From an uncultured Bacilli bacterium (lineage in GTDB: Bacteria; Bacillota_I; Bacilli_A; RF39; UBA660): 64,000 nucleotides of DNA. The notes under the pieces were generated by a model that saw only the letters and a list, made by a program, of their open reading frames with translations, did not search any database and was not told where the DNA came from. How positions within the stretch are numbered: the stretch's first letter is position 1; every line of letters begins with the position of its first letter. A program made the translations under genes and the position numbers. Of this stretch, positions 63,655 through 63,687 are shown piece after piece. The stretch covers positions 402,994 through 466,993 of the forward strand of contig CAKORJ010000001.1 in the NCBI GenBank assembly GCA_934101575.1, given 5' to 3'.

Positions 63655-63687
63655 AATATAACACACACACACACACACACATGTCAA
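63655..63687 (-). promoter_or_regulatory. putative sigma-70 promoter with (GT)10 tract as spacer
   Basis: Minus strand TTGACA (63687-63682), then 21 nt consisting of (GT)10, then TATATT (63660-63655). AGGAGG RBS and ATG at 63631 follow. Confidence 0.4.
63661..63680. repeat. (AC)10 / (GT)10 dinucleotide microsatellite
   Basis: Perfect 20-nt AC repeat in an AT-rich intergenic region. Confidence 0.95.

Follow-up and report, generated by a model that had tools for sequence, protein, structure and literature searches.

Tandem repeats that separate the -35 and -10 boxes are known from several phase-variable promoters. They include the (TA)n tract of hifA/hifB in Haemophilus influenzae, the poly-G of porA and the poly-C of opc in Neisseria meningitidis, the poly-A of vlp in Mycoplasma hyorhinis, and the (TA)n tract of Vmm in Mycoplasma mycoides. 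In this hif/porA/vlp class, strains differ freely from one another, and alleles with the optimal spacing of 16-18 bp are among the common ones. MerR-family promoters, such as those of merT, zntA, copA, soxS, and bmr, have near-consensus hexamers with an over-long spacer of 19-20 bp. The optimal spacer measures 17 bp, a promoter with an extended -10 can do without the -35 box, and regulators of the MerR type remodel spacers that are too long (PMC6524683). MSL is a known accessory gene of diversity-generating retroelements (DGRs), in the arrangement called Architecture D (Wu et al. 2018, PMC5758913). The Msl-bearing DGRs of Bacteroides have been reported to be tightly regulated, with transcriptional silence both in vitro and in mice (bioRxiv 10.1101/2024.11.15.621889). 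Here, we analyze a (GT)10 microsatellite that lies upstream of an msl-containing DGR in a stretch of 64,000 nucleotides from an uncultured Bacilli bacterium (contig CAKORJ010000001.1, positions 402,994 to 466,993), hereafter called the window.

The tract lies between two promoter boxes on the minus strand, where direct reading gives the order TTGACA-t(GT)10-TATATT-11 nt-AGGAGG-6 nt-ATG. The -35 hexamer TTGACA (63682..63687) is the consensus. The 21-nt spacer (63661..63681) consists of a single t at 63681 and (GT)10 at 63680-63661. Its last five nucleotides, TGTGT (63665-63661), adjoin the -10 hexamer TATATT (63660-63655), and the resulting TGT-TATATT is an extended -10 element (TGn, or the "TRTG" of Firmicutes), with TG directly 5' of a hexamer that has A2 and T6. 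The -10 hexamer itself is inside a (TATAT)2 repeat (63651..63660). The Shine-Dalgarno sequence AGGAGG (63638..63643) is located 6 nt ahead of the ATG (63631-63629), and the distance from the end of the -10 hexamer to the ATG is 23 nt (11+6+6). The original prediction gave the hexamers, the (GT)10, the AGGAGG, the ATG, and the open reading frame (ORF) 63221..63631 correctly, but placed 13 nt instead of 11 between TATATT and AGGAGG and did not mention the extended -10. Upstream of the -35 box, there are a T-rich run (63688..63709), which is T-rich in most lineages and may act as an UP element, and a conserved box AACGCAAAT (63710..63718), which is present in 8 of the 12 lineages described below. 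The default promoter scan allows only 16-18-nt spacers and misses the TTGACA/TATATT site for that reason. The interpretation we favor, with about an even chance of being right, is that the tract is the length-constrained spacer of a conserved promoter of the DGR accessory operon in a clade of DGRs from uncultured gut Bacilli, which would be a mis-spaced sigma-A promoter with low or conditional output.

Relatives of the locus were fetched by Msl homologues, from 97% down to 40% identity, together with one metagenome-assembled genome (MAG) from GTDB. The sample consists of 33 contigs (cited by L numbers) in 12 lineages, with Msl 40-100% identical to that of the window; 20 further collapsed contigs of the window lineage were left out. 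The lineages are phylogenetically related, and the lineage counts are not fully independent. All 33 contigs carry the TTGACA/GT-spacer/TATATT module, and the spacer is complete in 32 of them. Repeat counts were taken from the consensus contigs. Contig L001, from a Hadza gut metagenome, has exactly the sequence of the window, and two other samples differ from it by 0.03-0.2%, all with 10 units. The tract was recovered identically by independent assemblers and from independent samples (ENA MEGAHIT/SPAdes contigs and Logan). Among the GTDB species representatives, a single relative was found, the "uncultured Bacilli bacterium" MAG CAKOSE010000020. Protein searches of JGI metagenomes and IMG/VR gave no matches, nor did a DNA search of INPHARED phages. 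The tract is absent from MSL-DGRs further off (31-38% identity). Judged from these sequences, the GT tract is specific to this DGR clade.

The spacer is exactly 21 nt in 9 of the 12 lineages. Five of them have a perfect t(GT)10 or g(GT)10: the window lineage and, with their Msl identity to the window, L015/16 (90%), L021/22 (51%), L024/26 (47%), and L180 (40%). In four lineages, the 21-nt spacer is an interrupted or degenerate tract (L006-9; L029; L023/25/27/28). One lineage has a 20-nt spacer (L018-20), and one has a 13-nt spacer with 6 units, a 4-unit deletion (L004, L010-14, L030). A 23-nt spacer is seen in L178/179, which belong to the same lineage as L180, making this lineage polymorphic for 23 and 21 nt. 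Among the 32 complete spacers from 12 lineages, none is 15-19 nt long. The repeat count is constant inside 10 of the 12 lineages. One contig requires caution. L004 and L005 both encode the Msl protein P0001; L005 has the 21-nt promoter and the variable repeat (VR) of the window type, and L004 has the 13-nt promoter and an L010-type VR with a template repeat (TR) of the window type, its TR/VR identity being just 70%. Either chimeric scaffolding or natural recombination between DGR alleles probably explains L004, which was not counted as independent evidence.

Within the intergenic region, the promoter-like layout is the best-conserved stretch. A single lineage deviates from TTGACA: two of the four contigs of L006-9 (L006 and L007) read TTAACA. 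TATATT is likewise replaced in a single lineage, L024/L026, which has TATTAT. The TG of the extended -10 is kept in 30 of the 32 contigs, L006 and L030 being the exceptions. In three lineages at 40-51% Msl identity, the -35 hexamer agrees fully with that of the window and the spacer at 95-100% of positions, and the -10 hexamer is identical in two of the three (L026 has TATTAT). In the same lineages, the 25 nt upstream are 45-54% identical, and the third codon positions of msl are 50-57% identical, which is near saturation. The perfect (GT)10 recurs at this divergence, and the interrupted tracts are still 21 nt long. The two observations together indicate that stabilizing selection holds the 10-unit/21-nt state itself. 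Alternation of purine and pyrimidine is kept less strictly; the alternating run is 21 nt in the perfect lineages, 13 nt in the L018-type, and 6 nt in the L023-type.

The AACGCAAAT box is found at a distance of 30-32 nt from TTGACA, start to start, and at 21 nt in L023/L026, one helical turn less. In the 13-nt lineage, which also lost 8 nt of the spacer, the box is replaced by GATAGAAAT. The box is missing in the L178 lineage, where the tract persists. In L014, the homology to other loci starts right at the AACGCAAAT box. L023 and L024, which encode the same Msl (P0014), have an overall identity of 97%, but of the 34 mismatches, about 15 cluster within ~38 nt over the spacer and the -10 hexamer, without a net change in length. 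This promoter difference resembles a replacement patch in which the spacing of 21 nt was kept.

The 21-nt spacing is not the usual geometry of the host. Spacers of 17-18 nt are seen in the 7-8 intergenic promoter candidates of the window that have a good -35 box. For example, TTGACA-17-TATATT with TG is located upstream of the gene at 28424-28825. Host RNA polymerase therefore uses canonical geometry. As a database control, IMG/VR and JGI metagenomes were scanned for CTTGACAWGT-N(1-31)-GTGTTATATTAT, which returned 147 sites. The spacer is 16-17 nt long in 140 of them; none has 21 nt, and none is GT-rich. Such a distribution indicates that the flanks of the tract are a widespread canonical promoter design and that the DGR family is an outlier in spacing. 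The spacer ends of canonical promoters are often rich in GT/TG.

Chance does not explain the tract. (GT)10 is the sole dinucleotide run of more than 5 units in the 64 kb window according to a regular-expression census, and the single period-2 array listed there by Tandem Repeats Finder. From the base composition, we calculate an expectation of ~1e-7 such runs per window. A chance origin is ruled out, and the original prediction rightly considered the run striking, although the G+C content of the window is 27.6% rather than roughly 25%. The strand asymmetry of the window is strong, with 45.5% T and 26.9% A on the plus strand, and the minus strand carries 45 of the 53 long ORFs.

The tract is also mutable. 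L178 and L180 encode the same Msl, have 11 and 10 GT units, respectively, and are otherwise identical over 1,797 nt. At this locus, the tract demonstrably slips, and it does so faster than bases substitute. The adjoining TATAT repeat ranges from 2 copies in the window through 3 in L006/7 to 4 in L008/9, in contigs that are 92-98% identical. This variation changes the length of the leader and creates additional TATATT hexamers. The first nucleotides of the Logan contig L017 are exactly T(GT)9. This end is a hint of a k=31 graph in which n=9 and n>=10 alleles coexist, and it fits equally a coverage dead-end.

The activity of the DGR can be compared with the state of the spacer. In relatives with (GT)10, 22 of 22 and 20 of 20 TR/VR mismatches are at adenines. 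Contigs L010 and L030, both with the 13-nt spacer, have the same TR and different VRs. L023, with a degenerate 21-nt spacer, and L026, with a perfect one, have the same Msl and different VRs. Judged from these repeats, DGR activity has occurred in every spacer state, which fits a promoter that always fires somewhat from the extended -10 and is also compatible with transient switching. The rate of non-A TR/VR mismatches is 0-0.09 for perfect tracts and 0.08-0.15 for interrupted tracts, a difference between 4 and 3 lineages that is not significant. In the window lineage, four contigs that come from different samples (L001-L003 and L005) share one VR sequence, with 2-3 non-adenine mismatches to the TR, suggesting that the DGR of the window has been quiet recently.

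We infer that the module is the promoter of the operon, that the 21-bp spacing lowers its activity, and that a remodeling factor may exist. The GT tract would keep near-consensus halves 21 bp apart, 4 bp past the 17-18 bp of the host, and RNA polymerase would be unable to touch the -35 and -10 boxes together in the usual way. Basal transcription would come from the extended -10 alone and be low. The reverse transcriptase (RT), Avd, Msl, and the TR RNA would thereby be scarce by default. Higher output would depend on a trans-acting factor that remodels the deformable GT spacer, possibly together with the helically phased AACGCAAAT box, or else on a rare slippage event. A phased trans-acting factor might explain the need for exactly 21 nt. 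This idea is suggested by the helical register of AACGCAAAT (31 or 21 nt) and by its joint loss with the 21-nt spacing in the 13-nt lineage. Low default output is expected from the 17-bp optimum, from the -35-independence of extended -10 promoters, and from MerR-type remodeling (PMC6524683). It agrees with the quiescence reported for Msl-type DGRs (bioRxiv 10.1101/2024.11.15.621889). With its odd spacing conserved in distant relatives, the tract looks more like a built-in throttle or regulatory spacer than like a simple on/off slippage switch.

Several points weigh against the mis-spaced promoter. It leaves the exact 21 nt unexplained: an unused -35 box would make spacers of 20-25 nt equivalent and let TTGACA decay, yet invariance is observed. 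The cassette encodes no candidate for the remodeling factor, and a MerR-type dimer would find no dyad symmetry in (GT)n. Since the DGR of the 13-nt lineage is intact and evidently active, such an element can do without the 21-nt geometry. The relatedness of the lineages, noted above, also bears on how far their agreement counts.

The original prediction proposed slipped-strand phase variation. In this scheme, 21 bp would be the dominant OFF or low state, and the rare loss of 1-2 units (19 or 17 bp) would switch the promoter ON, with diversification of the VR and subsequent reversion, so that DGR hypermutation would be under stochastic control. We consider this possible but doubtful. Its spacing arithmetic is correct, since the tract sets 21 bp and two units fewer give 17 bp (21-4=17). 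A repeat does lie between the boxes and does slip, as the 11 and 10 units at 0 mismatches over 1,797 nt and the lineage fixed for the 4-unit deletion show. A T(GT)9 start, as in L017, is the expected remnant of a k=31 bubble between n=9 and n>=10, but this end may be a coverage dead-end. The identical VR in four window-lineage contigs fits a mostly-OFF element, and perfect tracts show a weak trend to cleaner adenine-only TR/VR differences, which with 4 versus 3 lineages is not significant. The proposed ON state, however, was not encountered. An 8- or 9-unit allele is present in 0 of the 32 complete consensus spacers, although consensus assemblies may hide rare ON subpopulations, and the lack of 15-19-nt spacers in the 12 lineages speaks against 21 bp as OFF and 17 bp as ON. 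Comparison of repeat numbers in relatives, which the prediction called for, revealed the 11/10-unit pair and the 6-unit lineage, but invariance within 10 of the 12 lineages. A contingency tract should drift from one length to another. An OFF state needs no exact 10 units, yet five lineages, down to 40-51% identity, share that number. The four interrupted or degenerate lineages keep 21 nt without the mutability, so mutability is not the conserved property. Moreover, the extended -10 should permit transcription at any -35 spacing. A stricter version, in which the GT spacer is a true switch, is quite unlikely in our estimation. Diversification of the surface-type target of 1232 aa would then be on only at 8-9 units, reached by slippage in a minority of cells, or when two units are looped out per strand to give an effective 17 bp, and Msl might recognize and stabilize slipped GT loops and so couple the sensing of DNA structure to mutagenesis. 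The MutS fold family includes the loop-binding MSH3.

It is also conceivable, although unlikely, that TTGACA is not a -35 box. It may instead belong to a composite site for a class-II-type activator or repressor that binds TTGACA and/or the AACGCAAAT box, or for an alternative sigma factor, for example of the TcdR group, with the GT tract setting the helical phase or being a supercoiling-sensitive stretch prone to Z-DNA. TTGACA is invariant at a distance that sigma-A should not use, the AACGCAAAT box is in helical register with it (31 or 21 nt start to start), and the box and the 21-nt spacing were lost jointly in the 13-nt lineage. These observations would fit such a site, but AACGCAAAT is missing in the L178 lineage despite the tract, and the cassette has no regulator or sigma gene. 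TcdR-group (group 5) sigma promoters have the -35 TTTACA and the -10 GTTATA (PMC4031146). GTTATA is present here as gtGTTATAtt, but the -35 is TTGACA (TTAACA in two contigs) and never TTTACA; a TcdR-type promoter was rejected. Realignment by Z-DNA was rejected as well. The perfect 21-nt tract is wholly alternating purine-pyrimidine, but the degenerate spacers keep their length without alternation, that of L023 alternating over 6 nt only, which makes it doubtful that Z-DNA formation is what is conserved. By our own geometric reasoning, the Z form would lengthen the -35/-10 distance and not close the gap. A neutral microsatellite that arose in a promoter by accident, or an assembly artefact, is very improbable. 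Slippage from short GT-rich seeds can create microsatellites, and canonical promoters frequently offer GT/TG-rich spacer ends. Against this, there is no other such run in 64 kb, the tract is 95-100% identical where flanks and synonymous sites are near saturation, and the same tract came from independent assemblers and samples. Reads and k-mers are both longer than its 20 nt, making assembly collapse unlikely.

Two other signals at the tract were considered. An upstream ORF that runs over it (ATG at 63682-63680, ~15 codons, TAA within the Shine-Dalgarno region) was rejected, because its ATG is missing in the L010, L029, and L178 lineages, it has no Shine-Dalgarno sequence, and its frame would shift with each repeat unit. 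On the plus strand, an antisense candidate TATAAT (63652-63657) has neither a -35 box nor TG. TATAAT-like hexamers are common in the A+T-rich DNA here, according to shuffle controls.

The unit downstream of the promoter is a genuine and complete MSL-type DGR (msl-TR-avd-RT); the original prediction had called it a DGR with TR, avd, and RT. Its evidence consists of a MutS_I-like Msl, the TR, a bAvd protein, the RT, and adenine-biased TR/VR differences. All its features are on the minus strand. The msl gene (63221..63631) encodes a DGR accessory protein of 136 aa similar to MutS domain I (Pfam MutS_I, E 6.9e-07, 29.9 bits, cut-off 20.6). A sequence-profile search of the PDB with Msl gave no match. 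The AlphaFold model has a predicted local distance difference test (pLDDT) value of 95.5, and the best 50 Foldseek matches of the model in the PDB belong without exception to mismatch-repair proteins of the MutS/MSH type, chiefly MutS of E. coli and human MutSbeta. Among these best 50, 25 are at E<=1e-3, and the alignments cover 66-110 columns. Residues 24-28 (63562-63548) form the invariant motif G-K-F-Y-R with an invariant F26. The motif presumably aligns with GDFYE of E. coli MutS, its mismatch-contacting Phe-x-Glu motif. The Phe is kept as F26, and the position of the Glu is occupied by Arg in the close family.

A covarying hairpin followed by AGGGATAAAACTATA (63186..63221) is located immediately 5' of the TR, after the msl stop codon. 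In a 9-lineage alignment, L021 and L178 are among those with compensatory changes in the stem, and AGGGATAAAACTATA is invariant in all 9. The DGR RNA may have this hairpin as a 5' element. In some contigs, the Msl stop codon is lost, and the frame runs through the hairpin into the TR, giving a protein of 203 aa (P0003). The TR is 134 nt long (63050..63183). The TR/VR alignment in L001, which equals the window, shows 20 mismatches, 17 of which are at TR adenines. Between the TR and avd, a region highly conserved among lineages (62902..63027) matches the full model of Rfam RT-14 (RF02921) below threshold (gathering score 48.1), with 35.9 bits in the window and 40.1 bits in L018 (1431-1570). This region probably forms the structured 3' portion of the DGR RNA. 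The avd gene (62548..62883) encodes a bAvd-like protein of 111 aa (Pfam bAvd, E 1e-09, 39.3 bits, cut-off 40), and precomputed bAvd matches are present in all related loci. The DGR RT (61551..62567) is 338 aa long (Pfam RVT_1, E 1.6e-20). In the window lineage, a PD-(D/E)XK_2 "transposase" family gene (Rpn-like, 60434-61399, minus strand) is located directly 3' of the RT. In relatives, there is an HTH_Rpn_C match, and the gene is missing in the L010 and L178 contexts. The DGR is found in at least 4 different genomic neighborhoods. The genes of the cassette are the target, msl, avd, RT, and PDDEXK_2 genes; within the cassette, there is no helix-turn-helix regulator, MerR-family, or sigma gene.

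The target gene is located upstream of the promoter. It encodes 1232 aa in full in L001 and runs off the window, and its 3' end is the VR (63909..64000, from the TR/VR alignment), which is cut by the window edge. The VR is 230 nt upstream of the promoter tract, and the tract-VR distance is about 230-380 nt. The hairpin AACACC-GTAA-GGTGTT (63901-63886), directly after the VR, is conserved among lineages. The stop codon TAA of the target gene (63894-63892) sits in the GTAA loop of this 6-bp hairpin AACACC/GGTGTT. In the Bordetella phage DGR, a hairpin/cruciform is needed for target recognition, and the hairpin at 63886-63901 resembles it. A terminator-like hairpin with a T-run follows (63867-63836, in the block 63829..63901) and is conserved among lineages. 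It looks like the terminator of the target gene, which would insulate the msl unit from it. A third hairpin (63739..63775), with a covarying stem and the constant loop GTTTAATAC, is present in lineages at 47-100% Msl identity; it is not a typical terminator of the sense strand.

No conserved internal promoter or terminator was found between msl and TR-avd-RT. A separate TR-avd-RT promoter in the msl-TR gap (TAGAAA-17-TATATT) was rejected, because its TATATT is the loop of the conserved hairpin and is itself not conserved. Co-transcription is therefore plausible, and msl-TR-avd-RT may form one operon.

How cells silence and release DGRs is an open question, and the Bacteroides preprint gives no mechanism. 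The locus described here offers a concrete and conserved cis-element, a putative consensus promoter mis-spaced by a slippery and deformable GT tract. Bacterial microsatellites are normally exploited for variability, and selection for one length is unusual. Should the operon be controlled by repeat length or by distortion of the spacer, targeted hypermutation in these gut bacteria would be layered on a second stochastic or conditional switch. The tract is within one read pair of the VR, and existing metagenomes could therefore show how diverse the VR is in each state of the promoter.

Literature searches found no bacterial precedent for a GT/AC promoter spacer and no repeat-based control of any DGR. 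The word "promoter" is absent from Wu et al. (PMC5758913); in the preprint (bioRxiv 10.1101/2024.11.15.621889), it occurs twice, and "phase-variable" and "invertible" are absent. These counts imply that neither describes a promoter or a repeat element. The cassette itself is like MSL-type DGRs in its target with a C-terminal VR, its protein similar to MutS domain I, its Avd, TR, and RT, and its adenine-specific TR/VR differences. Unlike the described MSL-DGRs, its host is an uncultured low-G+C member of the Bacilli, and the tract is confined to this clade.

As in extended -10 sigma-A promoters, which can fire without a -35 box (PMC6524683), TGTGT adjoins TATATT. In usual extended -10 promoters, the -35 box is degenerate or absent, whereas a perfect TTGACA is kept here at a distance that looks non-functional. 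With the hif/porA/vlp class, the element shares a perfect tandem repeat as the -35/-10 spacer, a repeat number that sets the spacing, and slippage polymorphism. It differs in that the modal state is 21 bp, no near-optimal allele was seen, and interrupted tracts are equally long. The genes under it are a mutagenesis machine, not a surface antigen. With MerR-type promoters, which are off or low until the spacer is distorted (PMC6524683), it shares strong boxes that are out of register. The hexamers here are consensus or near-consensus, and the spacer is 21 bp compared with 19-20 bp. Unlike MerR-type promoters, (GT)10 has no dyad operator, the cassette has no MerR-family gene, and the TG of an extended -10 is present. 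The element lacks a defining trait of the hif/porA/vlp class, the near-optimal alleles, and one of the MerR type, the dyad operator with its regulator, and combines the layout of the former with the logic of the latter.

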